A stretch of 23,612 bases of DNA from a virus. Lineage: Duplodnaviria > Heunggongvirae > Uroviricota > Caudoviricetes. Under the pieces are notes generated by a model that was given only the letters and a program-made list of their open reading frames with translations, had not been told where the DNA came from and did no database searches. The translations under genes were made by a program, and so were the position numbers. This document shows, piece by piece, positions 1 to 19,862 of the stretch. How positions within the stretch are numbered: position 1 is the stretch's first letter; each line of letters starts with the position of its first letter. The DNA is taken from the IMG/VR virus record IMGVR_UViG_2728369591_000007, one strand, 5' to 3'.

Positions 1-1254
1 ATGCTGGAACAAATGGGCATTGCCGCGAAGCAAGCCTCGTATAAATTAGCGCAACTCTCCAGCCGCGAAAAAAATCGCGTGCTGGAAAAAATCGCCGATG
101 AACTGGAAGCACAAAGCGAAATCATCCTCAACGCTAACGCCCAGGATGTTGCTGACGCGCGAGCCAATGGCCTTAGCGAAGCGATGCTTGACCGTCTGGC
201 ACTGACGCCCGCACGGCTGAAAGGCATTGCCGACGATGTACGTCAGGTGTGCAACCTCGCCGATCCGGTGGGGCAGGTAATCGATGGCGGCGTACTGGAC
301 AGCGGCCTGCGTCTTGAGCGTCGTCGCGTACCGCTGGGGGTTATTGGCGTGATTTATGAAGCGCGCCCGAACGTGACGGTTGATGTCGCTTCGCTGTGCC
401 TGAAAACCGGTAATGCGGTGATCCTGCGCGGTGGCAAAGAAACGTGTCGCACTAACGCTGCAACGGTGGCGGTGATTCAGGACGCCCTGAAATCCTGCGG
501 CTTACCGGCGGGTGCCGTGCAGGCGATTGATAATCCTGACCGTGCGCTGGTCAGTGAAATGCTGCGTATGGATAAATACATCGACATGCTGATCCCGCGT
601 GGTGGCGCTGGTTTGCATAAACTGTGCCGTGAACAGTCGACAATCCCGGTGATCACAGGTGGTATAGGCGTATGCCATATTTACGTTGATGAAAGTGTAG
701 AGATCGCTGAAGCATTAAAAGTGATCGTCAACGCGAAAACTCAGCGTCCGAGCACATGTAATACGGTTGAAACGTTGCTGGTGAATAAAAACATCGCCGA
801 TAGCTTCCTGCCCGCATTAAGCAAACAAATGGCGGAAAGCGGCGTGACATTACACGCAGATGCAGCTGCACTGGCGCAGTTGCAGGCAGGCCCTGCGAAG
901 GTGGTTGCTGTTAAAGCCGAAGAGTATGACGATGAGTTTCTGTCATTAGATTTGAACGTCAAAATCGTCAGCGATCTTGACGATGCCATCGCCCATATTC
1001 GTGAACACGGCACACAACACTCCGATGCGATCCTGACCCGCGATATGCGCAACGCCCAGCGTTTTGTTAACGAAGTGGATTCGTCCGCTGTTTACGTTAA
1101 CGCCTCTACGCGTTTTACCGACGGCGGCCAGTTTGGTCTGGGTGCGGAAGTGGCGGTAAGCACACAAAAACTCCACGCGCGTGGCCCAATGGGGCTGGAA
1201 GCACTGACCACTTACAAGTGGATCGGCATTGGTGATTACACCATTCGTGCGTAA
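1..1254 (+). CDS. proA: gamma-glutamyl phosphate reductase (glutamate-5-semialdehyde dehydrogenase), complete 417 aa
   Basis: Full-length ORF starting at window position 1; translation [10 protein letters not shown]...GDYTIRA matches my memory of enterobacterial ProA; tRNA-Thr lies immediately downstream as in the E. coli proBA-thrW locus. Confidence 0.93.
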
Positions 1255-4732: not shown

Positions 4733-4904
4733 GCCAACAGGAACACCACAACCACAAAAACGCTACAAAGATGCCCACGGAGCACTCGTTACTGTCGAAA
4801 GCGTGTCTCACAACCGAGTGACGTTTTATCGCGACGGGTATCAATCGCCATGCGTACAACCGCTGGCGCGTTTCATGAAGGAGTTCGCGGAGGTTAACCA
4901 ATGA
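4725..4904 (+). CDS. hypothetical small protein, 59 aa
   Basis: ATG at 4725 preceded by GGAGG; overlaps the stop of the upstream gene by 8 bp; sequence MSKPTGTPQPQKRYKDAHGALVTVESVSHNRVTFYRDGYQSPCVQPLARFMKEFAEVNQ. Confidence 0.55.
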   Translation: MSKPTGTPQPQKRYKDAHGALVTVESVSHNRVTFYRDGYQSPCVQPLARFMKEFAEVNQ

Positions 4905-5338
4905 TACCCGTCCAGAAGAAGACATTTTCACTGGCTGGCATGTCGCCAAAATCCAGAAATATGACGGCAAAGTCAGGCATTAATACAGCAGATACAAGCA
5001 AAGTTTATCATTTGCTGGTGGTCGGAACGGATGCCTTAACCATACCAGAAATCTCGGGCGATGATATTAGCATTGAGAAGGTCAGCGGCTGCGCCAGAAA
5101 ATTTCTGGTCGTAGATGATGTCTTCCGCTCGTGTAGTGACTCCACAAAAACATTCGTCCACGCGCGTGACGTTAACGAAATGAGCGCGATGTACTGTGCT
5201 TCTGGTTCTTCCAATAGTGAGTTTTCGGAGTCCATAAAAAAGAGCTTGCCGTTATGCGGCAACACGGTTTATGGTTATAAGGCACCTCATAAAACGGGTG
5301 CCGGGTTTCGCAGCCCGGAAATGTACGAGGCGACACAT

Positions 5339-5360
5339 GACGCGCCGAGCGTCTTTTTTT
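5339..5360 (+). terminator. Candidate intrinsic terminator (short GC hairpin plus T7 run)
   Basis: GACGC-GCCGA-GCGTC followed by TTTTTTT. Confidence 0.5.
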
Positions 5361-5377
5361 GTGCCGTTAGCCAGACT

Positions 5378-5406
5378 CACACTTTTTTCAGTGATGTGGT
5401 TATAAT
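5378..5406 (+). promoter_or_regulatory. Candidate sigma70 promoter (perfect -10 TATAAT at 5401-5406, weak -35)
   Basis: TATAAT directly downstream of the terminator and upstream of a structured leader and the RBS-led ORF at 5563; the -35 match is poor, so the call is tentative. Confidence 0.3.
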
Positions 5407-5562
5407 CCGCGTCGCTTGCAAAATTATGGTGGGCTGGACAGGGCAGCCGAAAGGCTGGCCGGTTTCCTTGTACGCCGGTACTGCGAACTCTGTTCAGTCC
5501 ACCACCAGCGAGTTTCGCAGCTCCGGTGGTGGGAAGAATTCCCAGTACAAGGAGGCTGCCAC

Positions 5563-5757
5563 ATGCTGGCTACTACCCCTACCCAAAAACCGCAATTTAT
5601 CTGGATTATCGCCGCAGTTCGCCGCGATTGCCCGACAATTACCGCCAAAATTCATCATATTGCTGCCGAGTCTGAACGCGATGCTCGCCGTTCTCTGGTG
5701 CGCGATCACGTCTGCTTTTTTGCTGGTCGTATCCGCATGGAGGTGGCACATGATTAA
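5563..5757 (+). CDS. hypothetical small protein, 64 aa (first gene of the early operon)
   Basis: Strong RBS AGGAGG 7 nt upstream of ATG; translation MLATTPTQKPQFIWIIAAVRRDCPTITAKIHHIAAESERDARRSLVRDHVCFFAGRIRMEVAHD; stop overlaps the next start. Confidence 0.6.
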   Translation: MLATTPTQKPQFIWIIAAVRRDCPTITAKIHHIAAESERDARRSLVRDHVCFFAGRIRMEVAHD

Positions 5758-5968
5758 AACCTACGATGTGCATATGGATCCCCTCGAACGCACAAGCCAG
5801 ATCATCACACTGACAGAAGTGATTAACGACATTCTGGTGAGCAACTCTCCCTCACGAGACGAAAGACTGAAGGCGTTACTCGCGATATTGGATCTCGCCG
5901 TTCGTGACGTTCATTTCCTGCTGGAAGGTGGCGAAATGCCAGGAAAAACGGGGGCAACCAATGAATAA
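5750..5968 (+). CDS. hypothetical small protein, 72 aa
   Basis: ATG at 5750 preceded by GGAGG at spacing 7; translation MIKTYDVHMDPLERTSQIITLTEVINDILVSNSPSRDERLKALLAILDLAVRDVHFLLEGGEMPGKTGATNE; 8-bp overlap with both the previous and the next gene. Confidence 0.6.
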   Translation: MIKTYDVHMDPLERTSQIITLTEVINDILVSNSPSRDERLKALLAILDLAVRDVHFLLEGGEMPGKTGATNE

Positions 5969-11449: not shown

Positions 11450-11911
11450 ATGGAACTAAAATTTATTGATAACCCTGTGCGATTACAGGCCTTTCTTAAC
11501 GAGCCAGGCAATACCGAAAATATTGTTGAGCCGGGGCACACGTACTACATCAAGCCTGATGCGGTATATCTCGGCATCTACGAAGGATTAGTGCTGGCTG
11601 GCGTTCATGAAGTGCGTAACTTCTGGCATAGCGTTGTTGAATGCCATGCGGTGTACGACCCCGGATTCCGTGGTGAATATGCACTGCAAGGGCATCGATT
11701 ATTCTGCAAATGGCTTCTCGAAAACTCACCATTCCTTAACAGCATTACCATGGTTCCTGACACCACCAAATACGGACGGGCAATTATCCGTTTGCTTGGC
11801 GCTACCCGTGTTGGTCACCTTGATGATGCTTATATCAGATGTGGTAAACCCGTCGGCGTAACGCTTTATCAGTTAACTCGGCAACAATATAAGGAATTCA
11901 GCGAATGTTAA
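11450..11911 (+). CDS. hypothetical protein, 153 aa (first gene of cargo cassette)
   Basis: Co-directional with, and overlapping, the next gene; protein-like sequence; no family recognised. Confidence 0.6.
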   Translation: MELKFIDNPVRLQAFLNEPGNTENIVEPGHTYYIKPDAVYLGIYEGLVLAGVHEVRNFWHSVVECHAVYDPGFRGEYALQGHRLFCKWLLENSPFLNSITMVPDTTKYGRAIIRLLGATRVGHLDDAYIRCGKPVGVTLYQLTRQQYKEFSEC

Positions 11912-12582
11912 TTACCCACATAGCTCATAAACATCTCAATCGTGCCGTATACGAAAAAGGCGGTGATGGTGGTGCCTCTAAAGCTCAGGCGAAGGCCCAG
12001 CAGCAGGCAATTGATTTGCAGCGCGAGCAGTGGAATACGGTGATGAATAATCTCAAGCCGTATGCAGAAGTCGGATTGCCTGCTTTACAACAACTACAAG
12101 GACTGATGACTCTGGAAGGGCAGAATAAAGCCGCGAATGATTTCTTTGGTTCTGGTTTATATAAAACACAGGCAGATCAGGCCCGTTATCAGAACCTTGT
12201 CTCAGCAGAAGCTACCGGGGGGCTTGGCTCAACAGCTACCAGTAACCAGTTATCTTCCATTGCGCCCATGCTTTATAACAATTGGCTTAGTGGGCAAATG
12301 CAAAATTATGGAAACCTGCTAAATGTCGGGATGAATGCGGCATCAGGGCAGGCAACAGCAGGGCAAAACTACGCCAATAATACCGGACAACTCTTGCAGG
12401 GGCTTGGCGCTATTCGTGCAGGTCAGGCGCAGCAGCCATCCAGTCTTGCGCGTGGTATTGGTGGGGCAGCATCAGGCGCTTTAGCGGGTGCGCAACTTGG
12501 TTCCGTTGTTCCTGGAATAGGTACTGCGGCAGGCGCTATTGGTGGTGGGCTTATTGGTCTTGTTGGGGGGCTTGGATTCTAA
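11905..12582 (+). CDS. Gln/Gly-rich protein with C-terminal glycine-zipper hydrophobic segment, 225 aa (ejection/pilot-protein-like)
   Basis: C-terminus GIGGAASGALAGAQLGSVVPGIGTAAGAIGGGLIGLVGGLGF; stop overlaps the next start (TAATG). Confidence 0.6.
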   Translation: MLITHIAHKHLNRAVYEKGGDGGASKAQAKAQQQAIDLQREQWNTVMNNLKPYAEVGLPALQQLQGLMTLEGQNKAANDFFGSGLYKTQADQARYQNLVSAEATGGLGSTATSNQLSSIAPMLYNNWLSGQMQNYGNLLNVGMNAASGQATAGQNYANNTGQLLQGLGAIRAGQAQQPSSLARGIGGAASGALAGAQLGSVVPGIGTAAGAIGGGLIGLVGGLGF

Positions 12583-13901
12583 TGGCGACATGGCAACTTG
12601 GCGGGCTGCCTAGCATGGCACCGCAAAATGATAATGCTCCTCGTTCTTCCGTTCCTCAGCCTGTGCAGTATCAGCAGCAGCCAAACGTAGGTTTAATGGC
12701 GCTACAGGGGCTAAGAGGCGTTGCTGAGATTAATCAGCAGGCGCAAATTTCCCAGCAGCTAAAAGAATATCAGGCACAGTTGGGTAGTGCGGTAGCTAAT
12801 AATGATCGTGTTGGCGTGCAGAAGTTAATGGCCCAGTATCCCCAGTTTATGGCTGATTCTCAAAAACAGATGGGATTCATTGATGCTGAGCAAAATCGGC
12901 AGACCGCTGACGCTGCCATGAATCTGCGTCTTGCGTCACAAACTGGAGATCCACTGACCATGCAGAAGGCCATTCAGCAGGCAAATCCAGTATTACAGCG
13001 ATTTGGTCTTCCTGCTGAAGAGGTTTATCAGTCTTGGCAGAATGACCCACAGGAATTCAACAGAATCACTGACCTCATCCACCTCCATGCTGATCCAAAT
13101 AGTTACTTTAGTGTTCAAGAGAAGCAGCAAGGGCAGAGTATTGCACAGCAGAACGCAGATACATCTGCATATAATGCTCAGGTTAATGCGGAACAGGGTA
13201 ATCGGCGTCTCGATATGGAGCAGTTCAAAGTCCTATCCGATAACCAGCTACGCACGAGAGAAATGGTTCTGAAAGCACGACTTGGACGTGCTCAAAATGA
13301 CATCGAGAGAGACAAGCTCAATGCTGAACTGAGCAAGGTACAGCAGGCGAAAGTGGAGAAGATGAACGATAAAATTAATACTGTTGCAGGTAACATCGAC
13401 TCCTTGAACTCTGCGCTTGAAGTGGGTCATGAACTGGCGGGAATTGTAGGGAAACATCCTTCGGCCGTTACCCGTTCGCAGAACTATAACCCCCTGACGC
13501 TGGGGTTTGGATTCCTTCCTGATGTAGCAGAAGACACACGAAGCCTACGCGCCAAAGCTGATGAATACAACCTAAAGGTTATTCTGCCTAGCCTCAAAGG
13601 GACTTTTGGCTCTAACCCAACCGAAGGGGAAAGGGCTGCCCTTATGCAATCTCAAAATGGCATTAAGTCAGCAACCAGCAATGAGGCATTTTTGCGAGAG
13701 TTGAATAAAGCGCAGGACGTAATTATTCGAATGCAGAAACGACAGATTGCCGGGCTCGGTATTCCTGTAACCAAATCTAAGGACGAAGAAACTGATACTA
13801 AAATGCTGTTGCAGGATCCTTCTCTGGTTAAGGATTATGTGACCGCACATGGCTATCTGCCGGAAAGTTACTATCAGGCAAAACTTAAGGGATGGCAATG
13901 A
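12582..13901 (+). CDS. Gln-rich predicted coiled-coil protein, 439 aa (internal-virion/ejection-protein-like)
   Basis: Long Q/A/N-rich helical-looking sequence; translationally coupled to both flanking genes. Confidence 0.6.
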   Translation: MATWQLGGLPSMAPQNDNAPRSSVPQPVQYQQQPNVGLMALQGLRGVAEINQQAQISQQLKEYQAQLGSAVANNDRVGVQKLMAQYPQFMADSQKQMGFIDAEQNRQTADAAMNLRLASQTGDPLTMQKAIQQANPVLQRFGLPAEEVYQSWQNDPQEFNRITDLIHLHADPNSYFSVQEKQQGQSIAQQNADTSAYNAQVNAEQGNRRLDMEQFKVLSDNQLRTREMVLKARLGRAQNDIERDKLNAELSKVQQAKVEKMNDKINTVAGNIDSLNSALEVGHELAGIVGKHPSAVTRSQNYNPLTLGFGFLPDVAEDTRSLRAKADEYNLKVILPSLKGTFGSNPTEGERAALMQSQNGIKSATSNEAFLRELNKAQDVIIRMQKRQIAGLGIPVTKSKDEETDTKMLLQDPSLVKDYVTAHGYLPESYYQAKLKGWQ

Positions 13902-16618
13902 TGGCACAACTGACAGAAAAACAGAAAGCCTATTCCCGTCATCTCGATGAAAAATATGGTTTCCCATCAGGGACGATGGAAACATTAGTTGGCAATGAAT
14001 CTAGTGGTAACGGAAGTGCCGAGTCACCGAAAGGAGCTAGAGGATTTGCTCAACTGATGCCCTCAGTAATGAGTGATGCTGGTTATCGTGGAACAGATCC
14101 GCGCTCACTGCCATTTGAAAAGCAAATGGATATCGCAGCAAACCATCTCAATAAAGGAATGAAGCGATTTGGTGATATAGGTATGGCATTGGCTGGGTAT
14201 AATTCTGGCTATGCTCGTATTAATGCCGTAAGAAACGGTAAATCTACACTGCCAGATGAAACGGCTAATTACGTAAGTAAATTTGCAGATGCCGGAATAA
14301 TCCCTGATGACAGTGAAATCTTGCAGTTTGCACAAACCAGTCAACATCGCAATCTTCAGCAGCCTGACTACTCAGAGCTTGATAAAGAAATCTCTCAGGT
14401 GGGAGATATTTCTGCATGGGAAGCAAAACGTCAGCAATTTAAGAACATAGAAGCAGGACTACCAACAGCCAGTTCATGGGAGCAGAAAAGAGCTCATTTT
14501 CTCGCCGATGAAAATGCCGGGGAACCGCAGCAGCAAGTAGCCAAGTCTAACCTTAATCCTGAGATGGAATATCTTTCGCCAGGACTGAAAGCTGCGCCAG
14601 AGCAGATGGCCAGAGGGATTGCTAATATACCGTTTGATGTAATGGACGCAGGCGTGGGGGTAGTCAATGCGGCGCAATCAGCCGGAGCATGGGCAGCTCA
14701 GAAGCTTGGTGTGGGTGATGGTACATACACGCCCATATCACCTGTCTTTCGCCCAGTAGACCAACCTACAGATCCATACGCGCAGGCTGGTGAGCAGCTA
14801 GCACCTTACCTTATTACAGGATTAGGTGCAGGAAAGGCAGCTACCGCAGCTTCTTCAGTTGCCAACGCTCCACGTGCTGAACGTGCGGCCACAAAGGTGG
14901 CTAGTATGTTGGCAGAAAACCTGCCAGGTACATTGGTGAACGCCCAAAAGAACGGGCAGATCAGCCCAGAAGACCTAGCAAAAGAGACAGGTATTGGCCT
15001 AGCAGGATCGCTAGGAGCACGCGCTTTAATAAAGAGCGGACAGACAGCCAGTGACGTAATGCGAGATGTATTGCGGAGTAATACAAATCAATCAAGCTAT
15101 GTGTTAGGGGCAGCAAATACTCTGGAAACCGCCAATGATGTATCGAAAGCAGCGCGTTCTGCCGTAGGCCGAGAGCATATCGCATCGCAGGCATCAAACG
15201 TCAGAGATGATGTCGCTAAGGCGGCGAAAATCACTGGTATTAATATCAACACCCTGACGCCTGGAATGCGCTCAGGTAGTCGTGGAATTGCCCAAGCAGA
15301 AGGTGTTCTGGCATCAACTCCTGGGAATGTTCAGGATGCTCACCTTACGGCCTTCAATGAAATATCCTCAAAGTTGAATAAGCAGTTGTCTGATTTCGGT
15401 GCTGAGTCTGGAAGCGCATCAGAAAAAAGCGCAGCAATTAAAGAGCGCATCATCGCGAGCCTCAGTGATATGAAAACAGCAGAGAATATGGCATGGGCAG
15501 AACTGCGAAGCACGATGCCACGCGAAAGGATGAAAATGAGTAATGGGATGGCTGTCGTCCAAGCAGAAAAAGCAGCCAATGTTCCACTCAGCCCGGAGAT
15601 GAAACAGTTTCAGGCTGCCAATAACCAAGGTGGCGGCATAACCTTCGACGGGATGAAGGCATGGCGTGCTAAGTTTGCTGATGCTGAACAAGCAAACACC
15701 CGGGCAGGTAAGGCCAATGCCGCCCGGGTTGCCGGAGAAATGCGCAGAGCTATCACTGATGACATGCGCATCATGGCTGAAAAAGGAAACTTCCTCACAG
15801 AATGGCAGAAAGCTAACGATCTCTCTAAAAGTTACATTATCGCCAAACAAAATGCCGAATCTGTTTTTGGTCGAGATCTCGCATCAGACGCTATGGTAAG
15901 AAAAGGTGCCGATACGCTTAAGGCATCCGCAAACACTGGAACGGGAGCTTTTCACCGTCTTATCTCCGCGCTGCCGGAAGCAGAACGCCAACCAGCAATA
16001 GCATCTATTCTTCAGCATGCTGTGGCGCAGGGAGAGAAGGGAGGAATCGGTGAAGAGTCTGGTATCCAGTATTTTGCCAAGCTCATGACCCAGCAGAATG
16101 TAAACGCCATCAGTCGTCATGCGCCAGATCTCGGTAGAATGATGAAAGAGTTCGGTGTACTCGCTAAAGCCAGCACCAGACCGCAGCGATACGTAGAGCG
16201 CACGGGAAGAACAACTGAGGCTCTCAAAACGCTCGATTCAGGCCTTCCAAAGATCGTCGGCGTGATTATGAACGGAGTTCAACAGTCAGGTGCGATCGCT
16301 GGAGGCTTTGGCGGTGGTGTAATTGGTTCGATTAGTGGTTTGGTTGCTGGTGGCGCGCTGAGAAATACTGTGGCTAAGATTGGGGCGACAAGAAGTGGTC
16401 GATATGCGATAGAGAAAGCCGTTCAGGAAGCTACAAAAGCAGTGCGCGCAGGGGCATCACCAGCAGCGATCGCCGCAGCAGAGAAACGATTTTCGGCCAA
16501 TAAAATTGCCATGAAAGCAATTCGTGATGCCGTTGGGGCTGAAGAATTCGTGAAACTGACAAGGGCCGGGATTGTAGCTACCCTCAGTGGCATGAAAGAT
16601 GTTAGCGAATGGGAATAG
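13892..16618 (+). CDS. large protein with N-terminal lytic transglycosylase (SLT) domain and C-terminal glycine-rich hydrophobic segment, 908 aa
   Basis: SLT family signature near the N-terminus: catalytic E-S in GNESSGN, GFAQLMPS, and AGYNSGYAR; C-terminal GAIAGGFGGGVIGSISGLVAGGAL; architecture recalls podovirus internal core proteins of the T7 gp16 class. Confidence 0.7.
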   Translation: MAMMAQLTEKQKAYSRHLDEKYGFPSGTMETLVGNESSGNGSAESPKGARGFAQLMPSVMSDAGYRGTDPRSLPFEKQMDIAANHLNKGMKRFGDIGMALAGYNSGYARINAVRNGKSTLPDETANYVSKFADAGIIPDDSEILQFAQTSQHRNLQQPDYSELDKEISQVGDISAWEAKRQQFKNIEAGLPTASSWEQKRAHFLADENAGEPQQQVAKSNLNPEMEYLSPGLKAAPEQMARGIANIPFDVMDAGVGVVNAAQSAGAWAAQKLGVGDGTYTPISPVFRPVDQPTDPYAQAGEQLAPYLITGLGAGKAATAASSVANAPRAERAATKVASMLAENLPGTLVNAQKNGQISPEDLAKETGIGLAGSLGARALIKSGQTASDVMRDVLRSNTNQSSYVLGAANTLETANDVSKAARSAVGREHIASQASNVRDDVAKAAKITGININTLTPGMRSGSRGIAQAEGVLASTPGNVQDAHLTAFNEISSKLNKQLSDFGAESGSASEKSAAIKERIIASLSDMKTAENMAWAELRSTMPRERMKMSNGMAVVQAEKAANVPLSPEMKQFQAANNQGGGITFDGMKAWRAKFADAEQANTRAGKANAARVAGEMRRAITDDMRIMAEKGNFLTEWQKANDLSKSYIIAKQNAESVFGRDLASDAMVRKGADTLKASANTGTGAFHRLISALPEAERQPAIASILQHAVAQGEKGGIGEESGIQYFAKLMTQQNVNAISRHAPDLGRMMKEFGVLAKASTRPQRYVERTGRTTEALKTLDSGLPKIVGVIMNGVQQSGAIAGGFGGGVIGSISGLVAGGALRNTVAKIGATRSGRYAIEKAVQEATKAVRAGASPAAIAAAEKRFSANKIAMKAIRDAVGAEEFVKLTRAGIVATLSGMKDVSEWE

Positions 16619-16768
16619 ACGCTCTAACTAACAAAACCATAATAGCCAAGGACGGCATACTGATATTGAGCCAACTATCAAAATTCCATATCACATTACG
16701 AGCCTGTGGCTTACATTCGCTTACAGTGATGATAATTTATAACCACGCAATTCTTAGGTGAGATTATC

Positions 16769-17467
16769 ATGATTAAAAATCTTCTTTTAATATTATCCCT
16801 GTCATTATTGGCTGGATGCGTACAAAAACCGTTAGTAACGGTCAATGCTTTATCTTCCGGGCAATCTGTCGGTAAGAAGTTCTTGATCATCCCCGCAAGC
16901 CAAGAACTTTGGAACACCAAACAGATTGAATACACTCAAATAGCTACGGTAGTAGCCGCCAGTTTATCAAGCCAAGGATATACACAAGTTAAAGATGAAA
17001 AATTGGCTGACCAGGTAATTCTCTTGAACTTTTTGAGAAGCGGGGCCATTTCAAATACTCGTAATGTAACCATCCCAATATACGGGCAAACTGGTGTGAG
17101 CTCAGCAACAACGTACGGAAACTCGAACACCACGTTCAATAGTTATGGTGGTGGCTACGGTACAGCTAATACCACTGGAACGGCAACAACAGTTTATACG
17201 CCTACTTATGGAATTACTGGCGCGTATAACACAACTGTGACGGACACGTTCTACGGCGCAGGGGTGATACTCCAGTCGTTTGATGCCAAGGCCTATCTCA
17301 ATAATAGGCAGATTAATATGTTATGGAAAGTTGGTAGCTCAGTCGTCTCGCAACAGTCTGATGGAATTGCTGATTACAAGGGGTTGGCGAGAATAGCCGC
17401 TAGCTATGCCGGGAAAAATACAGAAGGTGATATAACTTTTAATGTTGACCCTAAAGCACCAAATTAA
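16769..17467 (+). CDS. lipoprotein, 232 aa, Thr/Gly/Tyr-rich low-complexity mature region
   Basis: Signal peptide with lipobox MIKNLLLILSLSLLAGC; RBS AGGTGA at spacing 8; intrinsic terminator immediately downstream. Confidence 0.7.
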   Translation: MIKNLLLILSLSLLAGCVQKPLVTVNALSSGQSVGKKFLIIPASQELWNTKQIEYTQIATVVAASLSSQGYTQVKDEKLADQVILLNFLRSGAISNTRNVTIPIYGQTGVSSATTYGNSNTTFNSYGGGYGTANTTGTATTVYTPTYGITGAYNTTVTDTFYGAGVILQSFDAKAYLNNRQINMLWKVGSSVVSQQSDGIADYKGLARIAASYAGKNTEGDITFNVDPKAPN

Positions 17468-17473
17468 CTAATA

Positions 17474-17495
17474 AGCCCGGTACGCCGGGCATTTT
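17474..17495 (+). terminator. Intrinsic terminator after the lipoprotein gene
   Basis: GCCCGG-TACG-CCGGGC hairpin followed by ATTTTG. Confidence 0.6.
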
Positions 17496-17680
17496 GCCCC
17501 CTATTATTCATGAATCGCTTTTTCTAGAAGGTATGCGACAAACGTTAAGTGACATTGCCTACACATTCGGGGCGGGATTTCAAATCCGCTCCCAGTTGAT
17601 GGGGCCGTTACAGTACGCGCATATCCGCTTTATGTGAAACAGGAAGATTTTTCTGATATCACTGCCACAGCAAAACACCA

Positions 17681-17703
17681 ATTTCGAGACAAGTACGCGC
17701 GCG
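17681..17703. repeat. CG-alternating 23-bp repeat, copy A
   Basis: ATTTCGAGACAAGTACGCGCGCG; followed by the 20-bp palindrome GTTGCAAAAAATTTTGCAAC at 17714-17733. Confidence 0.6.
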
Positions 17704-17966
17704 AGGGGTATCAGTTGCAAAAAATTTTGCAACTACGTCCGACCAATACACACACGATGGCGGGGGATACCATAAAACTGTTCTCTACATGAGACAGAGT
17801 GGTGGTGATGTGTTGATTATCGGCCTATATGCGCACAGGACGCGCTATGACAATGTTTTATGCGGGTACACCAATCACATGTATCTGGTGTGATAAATCG
17901 CGTTACATGACCTCTCATGTTGTGCTGGTGGTTATCACGACGTTCTGAATCTGGCTTTTGTCTGAT

Positions 17967-17989
17967 ATTTTGCGACAAGTACGCGCGCG
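17967..17989. repeat. CG-alternating 23-bp repeat, copy B
   Basis: ATTTTGCGACAAGTACGCGCGCG; shares the upstream TCTGATAT with copy A. Confidence 0.6.
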
Positions 17990-18326
17990 TAACATCGAAA
18001 TTATCGGATGGCGTATGTTGCTGGCAAGATAAAGTCGGCGTAATACAAAGGCGTTACTTGATAGCAGCAAGATTACAACAATGGTTGTTGAATTTGAGCG
18101 ATGTAAGGAATTGATTTAGGGAGGCGCTGATGGCTAAAAAGTTCCACTACCAGCGGATGAATGCGCCAGCGATGGCCGTTTGGTAGTAAAAGAGGAGCCA
18201 TTCCTCAATCAGTTGAATACATTATGCCAACTAAATGGGTGGGGGCACTGTGTGGGTATTCAGCGGTGACGGTATTTTTTAAGCCAAGGACTATCCGTAG
18301 CAGGGGGACTCATTTTGAAATATTTA

Positions 18327-18764
18327 TCATATGTAACTTATTATTTTAGATAAAGATTTCCAGTTAAAGAAAAAAGTTATCATTGATATAATCAAATATG
18401 CCCCTGCGAGTAGCAGGGCATAATAATCCAGAGGCAGATTGCTGACAACAGGGGCAAACATCGAGATCATTGCTAATAGGCAGGCTGTGATCAGCGTAGT
18501 TCCTGTATCAAAAAGCCCCTCAATAATGCCTTTTAGTACTCCGTTACTTTTTAGAGCGCCTACAATTCCCTTTGAACTATCAAAGCTACTTAGCATGGTG
18601 ACTGATGCCAAAACAAAACCAAAGAGAACTCCAGAAATAGTTGAAAGAGCACCAGCAGCCGAAATGACAGCATTGTGATCTAGGTCGTGTAAAAAATGGG
18701 CACCAGCAATAGCCATAGCTAGAGCAAACAATGACTTGGCAGCAAACAATTTCCGAGAACTCAT
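18327..18764 (-). CDS. small integral membrane protein, 145 aa, about four predicted transmembrane helices (candidate effector)
   Basis: Translation MSSRKLFAAKSLFALAMAIAGAHFL...LLAGAYLIISMITFFFNWKSLSKIISYI is dominated by hydrophobic segments; RBS AGGA 8 nt upstream; 12 bp downstream of the 361-aa gene on the same strand; AT-rich by eye. Confidence 0.7.
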   Translation of the reverse strand: MSSRKLFAAKSLFALAMAIAGAHFLHDLDHNAVISAAGALSTISGVLFGFVLASVTMLSSFDSSKGIVGALKSNGVLKGIIEGLFDTGTTLITACLLAMISMFAPVVSNLPLDYYALLLAGAYLIISMITFFFNWKSLSKIISYI

Positions 18765-18776
18765 AATGTATTCCTG

Positions 18777-19862
18777 TTACGTTTGACTAACCAAATAGTA
18801 CTGGGTTAGATACCTAAGGTTGTCATTCTTTGCTTGTAGCATAGCATTTTTAACGTCAGTATCGGTCGGATACCCATCTGCTTGGATAGGCACCATCTTC
18901 TTTACCGTAAGAACTTCGTCTACAAGACTTTTCTTCTTTTTATCGCCCTGAGCAACAACATTTGCTTTCTCAAAAGTTAAACGACCATCACCACCAGGGA
19001 ACTTTTCTAGCATCTCCTTAAGGCTTTTTTTAACGTCATCCTCAAGCCATCCCTTTGCTTTTCTTTTTAATGGAGAATGTCCGCGTAACGAAATAGTCAG
19101 GTGGCTTGAACTGGTGCCTCTGATCATCTCAATCATCTGATTCGCGAACATTCCATCGAGTTGATACTGTGCGGCATTGAAGTTTCTTGGGATGGCCACA
19201 GAAATCTCGCAGCTTCTTAGATTGGATCCAGTTTCGAGTAGTTCTTTGATGCTTTCTTCTTTCCAAATGGCTTCAAAAGAAACAGGGACTCCGCGATCAC
19301 TGGAGTTGAAAAGAAGGAAGGCTAAGTCACTATGGCGTGGACCTAAATGATTTAAAGACAATACTAGAATGTCTGTCTGAGGATAATAAATAAAGTATGT
19401 ACGTTCTGAAAGAGTCTTTGCCCCGGCTAGAGGGATTTTCTCTTCCACCCACTCTTTATCTGTAATATATGCCAGTGTTGCGCTTTTTCTTCTTCGAGAC
19501 ATGAATCCGAAGTAGGAGCCATCCTCGGGTGAGATGTCTAGAAAATGAATTTTAAGTTCTCTTTCACCAAAGTCTGCATAGTGGGTCATCTTGAAGTCTT
19601 TAGAACACCGATCATAGAGATTTTTAAAGGCCTCTGCGGTTAACCCCTTGTTACTAGTGCGAATATTCTCAGAGCTTGTGTAAAAGCCCACCCTTACAGA
19701 TTTCAAACTTTGATCTTTTGGTGCCACAGTCATTTGAGCTCCATTGTACTCTGCGATAGTTTTTGCACACCTTGAAATCAAAATCTCCATGTCAGTCACG
19801 AGAAAATAACTATGGATGAAACCCATCAAAGGCATTGAATACAGGTGGCTTTTGAGAATCAT
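18777..19862 (-). CDS. hypothetical soluble protein, 361 aa (possibly about 316 aa from an internal start); candidate sensor partner of the membrane protein
   Basis: Long minus-strand ORF with protein-like composition; an alternative ATG at MTVAPK has a better SD (GGAG); no family recognised; AT-rich by eye. Confidence 0.7.
   Translation of the reverse strand: MILKSHLYSMPLMGFIHSYFLVTDMEILISRCAKTIAEYNGAQMTVAPKDQSLKSVRVGFYTSSENIRTSNKGLTAEAFKNLYDRCSKDFKMTHYADFGERELKIHFLDISPEDGSYFGFMSRRRKSATLAYITDKEWVEEKIPLAGAKTLSERTYFIYYPQTDILVLSLNHLGPRHSDLAFLLFNSSDRGVPVSFEAIWKEESIKELLETGSNLRSCEISVAIPRNFNAAQYQLDGMFANQMIEMIRGTSSSHLTISLRGHSPLKRKAKGWLEDDVKKSLKEMLEKFPGGDGRLTFEKANVVAQGDKKKKSLVDEVLTVKKMVPIQADGYPTDTDVKNAMLQAKNDNLRYLTQYYLVSQT

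Follow-up and report, generated by a model that had tools for sequence, protein, structure and literature searches.

Cor (phi80/N15) and Llp (T5), two outer-membrane lipoproteins encoded by phages, act in the exclusion of superinfecting phage; both are about 60–80 aa long and bind FhuA specifically. [quoted passage not shown] CsgG and PelC are ring-forming outer-membrane lipoproteins of exopolymer secretion with amphipathic transmembrane hairpins, and PelC, TraT and CsgG assemble as 12-, 10- and 9-mers, respectively (PMC11733297). P22 SieA, an inner-membrane protein of about 19 kDa, is polytopic, bears the motif FxRYPxEAxxFNK on its cytoplasmic side and blocks the gp20/gp16 conduit; sieA is present in 22 of 66 P22-like phages and is located between genes 16 and 9 of the prophage (PMC10883804). 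The function of DUF4136 (PF13590) is not known (PMC5192318).

Like sieA, the gene of the lipoprotein described here is a prophage accessory gene for an envelope protein in the slot between gene 16 and arc/tailspike; unlike SieA, it encodes a predicted Sec/Lol lipoprotein, with no sequence relationship to SieA and no FxRYPxEAxxFNK motif in its sequence. The protein differs from Cor and Llp in its length (232 aa), its pan-phylum family and the lack of any PHROG or sequence match to them. Whereas TraT carries inserted membrane helices, a polar Thr/Gly/Tyr β-hairpin is inserted here, and β1 starts at residue 22, four residues after the lipidated Cys; copies on plasmids were not found. In place of the amphipathic hairpins of CsgG and PelC there is one long polar ribbon, and no curli or Pel genes lie nearby.

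The lipoprotein gene and its flanks

The gene lies in a window of 23,612 nucleotides (the whole stretch of DNA that was analysed), whose host element is a phage-satellite-like island. Features are listed in Table 1. The protein is identical to WP_000594596.1, which E. coli genome annotations call 'hypothetical protein', and the 1 kb that includes the gene (16600–17600) was matched at ≥95% identity in 76 of 5426 complete E. coli genomes. As read from the sequence, the signal peptide is MIKNLLLILSLSLLAG, followed by Cys17. The LLAGC lipobox recognized in the preliminary description is canonical (L-A-G-C), conforms to the bacterial lipoprotein pattern [LVI][ASTVI][GAS]C and is conserved in relatives: Cys17 is ≥90% conserved in the family alignment, and at least 235 of 297 family members have a lipobox-type Cys. 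Under the E. coli Lol avoidance rule, a residue other than Asp at +2 leads to outer-membrane sorting. The Val at this position points to the outer membrane as the predicted destination, and Asp is found there in only one of the 235 lipobox-bearing relatives. The AlphaFold2 (AF2) model contains no transmembrane helix beyond the signal peptide, and a comparison with Rfam found no RNA family overlapping either the gene or the sequence on its two sides.

Table 1 Features of the lipoprotein gene and its flanks (positions in the window)
Feature	Position	Strand	Details
P22-type cassette: gp14 (DUF2824), gp7, gp20 (Inj_translocase), gp16-like (SLT)	11450..16618	+	Pfam; directly upstream of the lipoprotein gene
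Weak sigma-70-like promoter candidate TAGACG-16-CATAAT	16616..16643	+	9/12 matches
Shine-Dalgarno AGGTGAG	16756..16762	+	Ends 6 nt before ATG; sequence read directly
Lipoprotein CDS	16769..17467	+	232 aa plus stop; ATG start (ORF list)
Signal peptide with lipobox LLAG-C17	16769..16819	+	Cys codon 16817-16819; Val at +2
N-terminal half of predicted alpha/beta core (residues 18-97: beta1, beta2, helix 53-68, long-strand start)	16820..17059	+	
Projecting hairpin part, the T/G/Y-rich segment (residues 98-160; turn G127-G129)	17060..17248	+	AF2 pLDDT 64-91, mfDCA
Conserved motif 1 (residues 103-117, P-I-Y-G-Q-T-G-V-S-S-A-T-T-Y-G; family Px[WFY]GQTG[VI]SS[SA]xTxG)	17075..17119	+	
Conserved motif 2 (residues 141-151, T-V-Y-T-P-T-Y-G-I-T-G; family TxYTP[TS]YG[IV]TG)	17189..17221	+	
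C-terminal half of predicted core (residues 161-232: long-strand end, strand 184-194, helix 200-212, strand 222-225)	17249..17464	+	AF2
Terminator-like stem-loop GCCCGG-TACG-CCGGGC (17475-17490), then ATTTTG	17475..17495	+	

The position given earlier for the gene, between an ejection-like cassette and a two-gene module, was borne out: Pfam identified DUF2824, P22_gp7, Inj_translocase and SLT domains in the gp14/gp7/gp20/gp16-like genes upstream, and the two-gene module lies downstream on the minus strand (18327–19862). GC content drops from 0.52 to 0.39 in the 150-nt gap that follows the gp16-like gene. The promoter candidate in this gap is to be read against a regional count of such sites that does not exceed shuffle expectation. 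The gene had also been credited with its own terminator. A G+C-rich stem-loop does follow it, but only four T come after the stem, the plus-strand rule failed and the scanner scored the minus strand.

A conserved β-hairpin in the Thr/Gly/Tyr-rich segment

The described richness of the mature protein in Thr, Gly, Tyr and Asn is pronounced: Thr, Gly, Tyr, Asn and Ser make up 78% of residues 106–163, with a single charged residue, versus 32% and 26 charged residues in the remainder of the mature protein. The bias is real, but 'low-complexity' is a misleading label, as this stretch is the best-conserved segment of the family (about 300 homologues from many Gram-negative phyla) and reads as compositionally biased, conserved sequence and not as disordered filler. 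Family members share the motifs Px[WFY]GQTG[VI]SS..T.G … TT.YTP[TS]YG[IV]TG, with per-position identities of 92–100%. Over 203 sequences, conservation reached 98% for P103, 99% for G106, 94% for Q107, 98% for T108, 100% for G109, 97% for T115 and 93% for G117 in motif 1, and 98% for T141, 97% for P145, 92% for Y147, 99% for G148 and 99% for G151 in motif 2. The motifs are spaced by 33 residues in 148 members and by 42 in the enterobacterial subclade, the mobile-element subclade having its own 9-residue extension at the hairpin tip. The 'repeats' noted earlier survive only loosely, as a peptide periodicity (xTYGx), because no DNA-level tandem repeat or slippage origin was found for the segment.

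AF2, run with an alignment of 118 sequences (overall pLDDT 87.3), placed the segment in a single continuous β-hairpin with strands 82–126 and 130–172. Independently of AF2, mfDCA couplings formed a single anti-diagonal (i+j = 254–257, z 4–5.3). We regard the hairpin as established, since the model and the separate coupling analysis both support it. Motifs 1 and 2 pair across the strands (couplings 104–152, 110–146 and 113–143), Gly 106, 109, 148 and 151 lie opposite Thr or Tyr and both faces of the hairpin are conserved in the family alignment. Further couplings (164–192, 166–190 and 170–186) were found in the C-terminal core, and those of β1 and β2 gave contradictory indications of which way the hairpin points from the lipid anchor. 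In the model, a nearly invariant insertion of roughly 60 residues lengthens two core strands into the hairpin, with about 25–30 residues per strand and an estimated length of 80–100 Å.

The predicted core is of the LptE/PelC/TraT/CsgG/DUF4136 α/β type. Foldseek matched the solved DUF4136 member BT2437 (PDB 4f54; E 4.5e-4), whose fold the model shares, and also PelC, TraT and LptE. By sequence, no relative of solved structure was found (best E 1.9); β-1,3-glucanases, which appeared at this E value, were rejected as a chance 'YGITG' match. No viral structural counterpart was found in BFVD at E ≤ 1e-3. The protein itself scores below the DUF4136 gathering threshold (14.2 versus 32.8 bits) while 91 of the 118 aligned relatives match DUF4136 at E ≤ 0.01 (best 1.3e-15), so membership is transitive only. 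We place the protein, as a divergent member, in a large family related to DUF4136, in which the invariant GQTG…PTYGITG hairpin sets its subfamily apart.

A true homologue of TraT was considered and rejected. With the Pfam model PF05818 the protein scored 12.9 bits, short of the cut-off of 31, and all 118 relatives failed to match; an hhalign probability of 88%, which came from the signal peptides, fell to 5.7% (E 0.0067) without them. The TraT-type LptE-like β-sandwich core is present in the model; the two inserted hydrophobic transmembrane helices and the N-terminal amphipathic helix are absent. A spanin (o-spanin/Rz1-like) was likewise discarded, as the PHROG match (E 0.2–0.58) covers residues 1–25 only and holin and lysozyme are encoded elsewhere in the carrier prophage.

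Family distribution and carrier elements

The wider family comprises 3824 clusters at 50% identity from many Gram-negative phyla and extends to environmental bacteria of sediment, groundwater and marine origin. Most members are solitary chromosomal genes with unrelated neighbours, housekeeping ones (SecA, ATP synthase and methionine synthase) included. Outside podovirus/satellite contexts, no conserved neighbour gene was found in 50 loci, either by all-against-all comparison of 470 neighbour ORFs or by scanning 133 neighbours with Pfam, a result that would fit a protein acting on its own. No characterized relative was found, the source names being only 'hypothetical', 'DUF4136' or 'lipoprotein'. 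PADLOC-DB 2.0 models yielded 0 families at E ≤ 0.01, NCBIfam gave no matches and PHROGs matched the signal peptide only. As most members occupy ordinary chromosomal neighbourhoods in many phyla, an anti-phage role would not be family-wide.

The enterobacterial and other close copies are distributed differently. Statements on context refer to loci whose neighbourhoods were examined; among these, all such copies lay in mobile elements, either P4/PICI-like islands or podovirus prophages, and no native chromosomal locus was found for the enterobacterial copies. In the E. coli thrW island, an integrase, AlpA, a primase and an E-cassette accompany the lipoprotein gene, and islands in Kluyvera and other Enterobacteriaceae also carry it. 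One Vibrio copy and one metagenomic copy are in integrase islands, and twelve IMG/VR contigs encode the lipoprotein. Searches of 50,697 sequenced phages and of 72,556 plasmids gave no homologue. Carrier strains came from human, poultry and livestock sources.

Two types of podovirus prophage carry the gene. In a complete Serratia P22-like prophage, the order is coat, gp4, gp10, gp26, gp14, gp7, gp20, gp16, lipoprotein, arc and tailspike, which puts the lipoprotein gene between genes 16 and 9, where sieA is located. The gene is preceded by a gap of 78–150 nt in the P22-type context, and it travels together with the gp14-gp7-gp20-gp16 block in both the islands and the P22-like prophage. In the second type, three large proteins precede the lipoprotein, followed by the tailspike and holin/lysozyme; here, in Serratia nevei, a TAATG start/stop overlap couples the gene translationally to a late structural gene. 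The holin and lysozyme of the carrier prophage form a complete cassette separate from the lipoprotein gene. The slot is swappable: a sibling island has a different ejection cassette there, together with an unrelated secreted protein. The enterobacterial gene is a moron of temperate podoviruses and P4/PICI-like islands and directly follows the final gene of the ejection proteins. Literature searches yielded no relevant account of a TraT-like protein in prophages or of ejection proteins in satellites.

Proposed role and alternatives

We propose that the protein may be an outer-membrane accessory lipoprotein that serves as an envelope-level barrier or exclusion factor by analogy with TraT, a reading to which we assign a probability of about 40%. 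After Sec export, lipidation and Lol sorting to the outer membrane, the protein would self-assemble there through its conserved hairpin and, given that no conserved partner gene was found, would act alone. It would form a generic envelope barrier at which the ejection machinery of an incoming phage is hindered, at the outer membrane or in the periplasm, a form of surface or entry exclusion like that proposed for TraT. The beneficiary would be the lysogen or, in phages with translational coupling between the gene and the late operon, the lytically infected cell. Points against this reading are the absence of homologues from the sequenced phages and plasmids searched, the loss of the TraT match once signal peptides are removed and the weakness of the promoter candidate. 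Superinfection exclusion, the role suggested in the preliminary description, is favoured by context (prophages, satellite-like islands and the sieA slot) but not by homology, the searches of PADLOC, PHROGs and NCBIfam having returned no characterized homologue. That description would have abandoned exclusion on finding homology to a housekeeping lipoprotein family; the mostly solitary, chromosomal family comes close to this, but no housekeeping function is known for it either.

A lysogenic-conversion factor for host benefit, conferring resistance to complement, phagocytosis or membrane-attacking agents like TraT or lambda Bor/Iss, is unlikely. It would fit the TraT-type fold, the human, poultry and livestock origin of carrier strains and the occurrence of relatives as autonomous single genes, and complement resistance is also conferred by TraT (PMC12658005). 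Arguing against it are the consistent placement of the gene in the sieA slot beside ejection genes, seen in two podovirus types as well as in satellites, and the coupling to a late structural gene in one phage, which is unexpected for a pure virulence moron. The sediment, groundwater and marine relatives, moreover, meet no complement.

It is rather less likely that an ordinary envelope lipoprotein with a housekeeping role was acquired by a P22-like phage and persists as a passive passenger with no element-specific function. The breadth of the family across phyla and its unrelated chromosomal neighbours would suit such an origin, and some DUF4136 genes lie in two-component operons (PMC5192318). 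However, the enterobacterial copies were seen only in mobile elements among the loci examined, the gene is intact at 95–100% identity in the 76 E. coli genomes and it has been retained across two unrelated ejection cassettes as well as satellites. The hairpin-tip extension, peculiar to the mobile-element subclade, also speaks against passive carriage.

A ring channel or pore, in which the hairpins of 8–12 subunits form a long β-barrel across the outer membrane as in CsgG or β-pore-forming toxins, conducting a substrate or aiding phage release or entry, is very unlikely. The hairpin has a suitable length and two conserved faces with Gly facing Thr or Tyr, its fold relatives are ring-forming, and Foldseek matched the pore-state stems of aerolysin, lysenin, epsilon toxin, CDTb and anthrax PA at E of about 1e-3; the TM-scores of these matches, however, were only 0.10–0.14. 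A transmembrane amphipathic hairpin of the CsgG or pore-former type was rejected on negative period-2 tests: on two hydrophobicity scales, no significant alternation was detected in the protein or the family mean (family-wise p ≥ 0.3), the best 12-residue window (99–110) gave p 0.31 in the protein and 0.99 in the family mean and period-2 power over the whole hairpin was below the shuffle mean. Aliphatic residues are very scarce in the hairpin, and only one of its residues is charged. A second coupling anti-diagonal, as expected of inter-subunit pairing, was not seen in an analysis of low power (Neff about 233, near-invariant columns). With neither a period-2 pattern nor a second coupling band, these analyses lend no support to membrane insertion or oligomerization, which also counts against the self-assembly in the exclusion reading. 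The complete, separate lysis cassettes of carrier prophages are a further point against a channel or pore.

Highly improbable is a partner of the ejection cassette that guards against the element's own gp16-type lytic transglycosylase or, as Llp does for T5, keeps progeny from ejecting into lysed-cell debris: co-travel with the gp14–gp16 block, exchange of the block and following gene as a unit in the sibling island and the coupling in Serratia nevei would agree with it, but ejection genes are missing from the surroundings of distant family members, unrelated large proteins precede the gene in the second podovirus type and, in the P22-type context, the gap and the fall in GC content suggest that the gene is a separate unit.

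A more ambitious form of the exclusion reading, which we consider a long shot, is that the GQTG…PTYGITG lipoproteins might be unrecognized ring-shaped outer-membrane complexes with a hairpin β-barrel stalk of about 80–100 Å beneath or through the outer membrane. One lineage would then have been captured by temperate podoviruses and their satellites as the first exclusion device located at the outer membrane against the gp7/gp20/gp16 conduit, complementing or replacing the inner-membrane SieA at the same locus.

The analysis defines a large lipoprotein family, of at least 3,800 clusters, whose 60-residue hairpin hardly varies and for which no function is known. Its nearest structural relatives, TraT, PelC, CsgG and LptE, are all outer-membrane machines, making the family a reasonable structural target for the cell envelope. 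A different envelope protein in the sieA slot is a concrete candidate, and one that can be tested at low cost, for a second mechanism by which podoviruses are excluded, and the lipoprotein may reveal what satellites gain from carrying an ejection cassette.

Lipoprotein gene and surrounding island

The window opens at the E. coli proA–tRNA-Thr (thrW) junction and continues into an integrative island, the front part of which encodes a P4-type integrase, an AlpA-like regulator, an antirepressor, Ash and a TOPRIM/DUF927 primase. After the primase comes a P22-type block of gp14 (DUF2824), gp7, gp20 (Inj_translocase) and a 908-aa gp16-like protein with an SLT domain, and 3' of this block lie the lipoprotein gene, the minus-strand two-gene module, PerC and other genes. 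This order bears out the earlier placement of the lipoprotein between an ejection-like cassette and the two-gene module. Of 5426 complete E. coli genomes, 76 contain the 1-kb stretch holding the gene (16600-17600), at 95-100% identity and in each case on the chromosome; the product is annotated there solely as 'hypothetical protein' (WP_000594596.1).

The gene is firmly considered real: its reading frame and lipobox are as the preliminary description had them, and a terminator-like stem-loop of its own follows. The N terminus, MIKNLLLILSLSLLAG followed by C, is a textbook lipoprotein signal with the lipobox L-A-G-C. By the E. coli Lol rule, which is well established, Val at position +2 predicts sorting of the protein to the outer membrane. 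Promoter-like sites near the gene were no more frequent than in shuffled sequence, and the GC fraction, 0.52 where the upstream gene ends, has dropped to 0.39 where the lipoprotein gene starts.

Features of the window and of related loci (window positions unless a numbered locus, L, is given)
Feature	Position	Strand	Remarks
thrW element	1369-23612		also in L002, L003-L006, L014
ORF with both RNA matches	4901-5968		annotated 'ash family protein' in strain CB209
isrK Hfq-binding RNA	5282-5359		69 bits
C4 antisense RNA	5422-5509		81 bits
Weak promoter-like site	16616-16643		TAGACG-16-CATAAT; in 150-nt gap 3' of upstream gene
Ribosome-binding site	6 nt 5' of lipoprotein ATG	+	AGGTGAG
Lipoprotein ORF	16769-17467	+	ATG start, 232 codons
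Stem-loop	17475-17490		G+C-rich, then ATTTT; closes lipoprotein unit
Non-coding stretch	17569-18300		lipoprotein terminator to 3' end of two-gene module
Two-gene module	18327-19862	-	361 aa and 145 aa
Island, E. coli PK8276	L001 8392-12913		truncated
dndB/dndC cluster, E. coli CB209	L002 28896-30336		3' of island
Three large proteins, Serratia nevei prophage	L010 2861-10001		839, 618, 921 aa; also L017, L019, L021
Sibling thrW island, E. coli M10	L064 1897-5926		

The thrW element as a whole looks like a P4/PICI-type satellite and carries the gp14-gp7-gp20-gp16 P22-type ejection cassette but has no genes for capsid, terminase or tail; a search of the literature for satellites that encode ejection proteins turned up no such case. 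The isrK and C4 RNAs, both matched above the Rfam gathering score, fall within one ORF, an arrangement reminiscent of P1/P7-type C4 antirepressor control. The non-coding stretch beyond the lipoprotein terminator had no Rfam match and occurs, usually without an annotated feature, in 546 of the 5426 genomes (90-98% identity), about sevenfold more than carry the lipoprotein. The two-gene module, kept in sibling islands that lack the lipoprotein, has no Pfam or PADLOC match, and its 145-aa protein looks membrane-embedded from sequence. The PK8276 island has only part of gp7 and lacks the primase; its neighbours are a reverse transcriptase of the retron Ec67 type, a DUF262 protein and phage tail genes. 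In CB209, the cluster 3' of the island is of the phosphorothioation type. Defence-type cargo is stacked up in the thrW region.

DUF4136-related family and predicted hairpin

Between residues 106 and 163, Thr, Gly, Tyr, Asn and Ser make up 78% of the protein with one charged residue, compared to 32% and 26 charged residues in the rest of the mature protein, and no DNA tandem repeat underlies this segment. The Thr/Gly/Tyr/Asn richness claimed earlier stands, but the label 'low-complexity' does not, the segment being the conserved core of a large family. In the alignment of 37 relatives from a first search, nearly all invariant columns (P103, G106, Q107, T108, G109, T115, G117, G127, T141, P145, T146, Y147, G148, T150 and G151) lie within it. 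When 1.84 billion cluster representatives were searched with a profile, 3824 clusters came up at E <= 1e-3 (654 at <= 1e-30), with relatives in Proteobacteria, Desulfobacterota, Verrucomicrobia, Planctomycetes, Nitrospirae, Bacteroidota, Chlamydiae, Leptospira and others. Among 203 diverse members, eleven positions of the motif Px[WFY]GQTG[VI]SS[SA]xTxG … TxYTP[TS]YG[IV]TG are 92-100% conserved; its halves are spaced by 33 residues in most members and by 42 in the enterobacterial subclade, which has about nine extra residues at the hairpin tip.

Pfam DUF4136 was matched by 91 of 118 relatives and Pfam TraT by none. The window protein itself scored below the cut-offs for DUF4136 (14.2 versus 32.8) and TraT (12.9 versus 31), had no match in NCBIfam, PADLOC or, by sequence, the PDB, and matched PHROGs through its signal peptide only. 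No source gives a functional name to any relative, and literature searches for DUF4136 and for TraT-like prophage proteins yielded nothing relevant. We conclude firmly that the lipoprotein has its place in a large DUF4136-related family that is built on an LptE/TraT-type core and is uncharacterised, none of its members having been studied.

With 28 sequences, AF2 modelled the alpha/beta core confidently but not the tip (pLDDT < 50, residues 110-145); with 118 sequences, the whole protein reached pLDDT 87.3 and the biased segment became one continuous hairpin (strands 82-126 and 130-172, turn G127-G129). In this model the base of the hairpin is part of the core sheet and about 25-30 residues per strand project, an estimated 80-100 Å at 3.3 Å per residue. 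Mean-field direct-coupling analysis of 293 family sequences (Neff 233) gave a single anti-diagonal between the strands (i+j = 254-257, z 4.0-5.3; pairs from 87-167 to 113-143, among them 98-157, 104-152 and 110-146). Covariation thus backs the hairpin and its register, placing the conserved motif halves opposite each other (G106-T150, T108-G148, G109-Y147 and Y105-G151), although AF2 also used the alignment, so that model and couplings are not wholly independent evidence. The biased stretch is firmly predicted to be a conserved long beta-hairpin. Both of its faces are conserved, which suggests that it would be packed inside an assembly and would not stand free as a ribbon; a second anti-diagonal, as expected of inter-subunit pairing, was absent in what is a weak test on nearly invariant columns.

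Structure comparison gave PelC (10.8, 10.6 and 10.5 for three entries), the TraT decamer (9e2v, 9.4), DUF4136 protein BT2437 (8.9), CsgG (8.6) and LptE (7.6). Foldseek with the second model, from 118 sequences, again matched 4f54, PelC, TraT and LptE. BFVD contained no viral counterpart at E <= 1e-3. The hhalign probability of 88% against TraT fell to 5.7% (E 0.0067) once signal peptides and lipobox were removed, and homology to TraT was rejected. A permissive alignment is collinear, with the hairpin at the place of TraT's two Gly/Ala-rich transmembrane helices; this likeness is a resemblance and not demonstrated homology.

Relatives in phages and islands

Islands of this kind, ordered primase, SSB, ProQ-like, gp14-gp7-gp20-gp16 and lipoprotein, followed by variable cargo, also hold the close relatives (83-90% identity) of Kluyvera, Pluralibacter and other Enterobacteriaceae. 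A Serratia copy with 62% identity is part of a complete P22-like prophage (coat, gp4, gp10, gp26, gp14, gp7, gp20, gp16, lipoprotein, arc on the opposite strand, and tailspike with head-binding domain), at the immI/sieA position of P22. All sieA genes examined lie between genes 16 and 9 of P22-like prophages, and of 66 sequenced P22-like phages only 22 carry the gene (PMC10883804). A 38-41%-identical group (Serratia and IMG/VR contigs) belongs to a different podovirus type, in which three large proteins without Pfam matches, probably the ejection proteins of this second lineage, precede the lipoprotein, an endosialidase-like tailspike, holin and lysozyme. In the Serratia nevei phage the lipoprotein ATG overlaps the preceding stop codon (TAATG), with AGGTGA inside the preceding gene, so that the lipoprotein would be made with the late genes, at least in this phage. 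All enterobacterial copies whose context was examined lie on a temperate podovirus or satellite-like island, in the slot that sieA occupies. Other copies were found in a Vibrio integrase/reverse-transcriptase island, in a metagenomic integrase-AlpA-primase island and in prophage accessory regions adjoining a HipA-like kinase, HerA-like ATPase or endonuclease. Searches of 50,697 sequenced phages and 72,556 plasmids gave no homologue.

The sibling thrW island of E. coli M10 agrees with the present island in backbone and downstream genes but has a different cassette (a 488-aa Inj_translocase protein and a 701-aa protein without Pfam matches). Where the lipoprotein would lie, it encodes on the opposite strand an unrelated secreted protein of 132 aa, whose signal peptide is cleavable. 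Cassette and trailing envelope gene therefore seem to be exchanged as one unit.

At 38 loci from distant phyla the neighbours of the relatives are mutually unrelated and show no conserved partner gene; among them are SecA, ATP synthase, methionine synthase, a few transposases and one terminase. At five unrelated loci (L009, L012, L031, L044 and L054) the family member has a gene for a histidine kinase or response regulator 0.2-4.7 kb upstream of it, recalling the Burkholderia RR-LysM/FecR-HK-DUF4136 operon (PMC5192318), although two-component genes are so common that this may be chance.

Possible roles of the lipoprotein

The most economical reading, which follows the idea of the preliminary description and to which we give a probability of roughly 0.4, is that of an autonomous outer-membrane accessory protein that would hinder entry of superinfecting phages. 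The model now put forward for TraT, a generic barrier at the outer membrane, is a parallel (PMC12658005). The first reading held homology to a housekeeping lipoprotein family against exclusion; the family comes close to this, being widespread and mostly chromosomal, but has no known housekeeping role (PMC5192318; source names agree).

A role as a host-benefit conversion factor is unlikely. That the lipoprotein is a passively carried envelope protein appears quite unlikely.

A pore or channel is improbable. Foldseek matched the hairpin to pore-state chains of aerolysin, lysenin, epsilon toxin, CDTb, iota Ib and anthrax PA (E ~1e-3), but TM-scores were 0.10-0.14 and what the structures share is only the geometry of a very long ribbon of two strands. 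Hairpin composition gave no support to a lipid-facing barrel: period-2 hydrophobicity was not significant for the window protein or the family mean on the Kyte-Doolittle scale, a variant with Tyr and Trp as hydrophobic, or an interfacial scale (best window, residues 99-110, family-wise p 0.31). Least credible is a role as partner or guard of the ejection cassette next to the gene.

The family-wide hairpin is a more unusual feature than a phage-borne outer-membrane lipoprotein in an exclusion slot, and the lipoprotein is a well-defined, easily testable candidate for an exclusion function.
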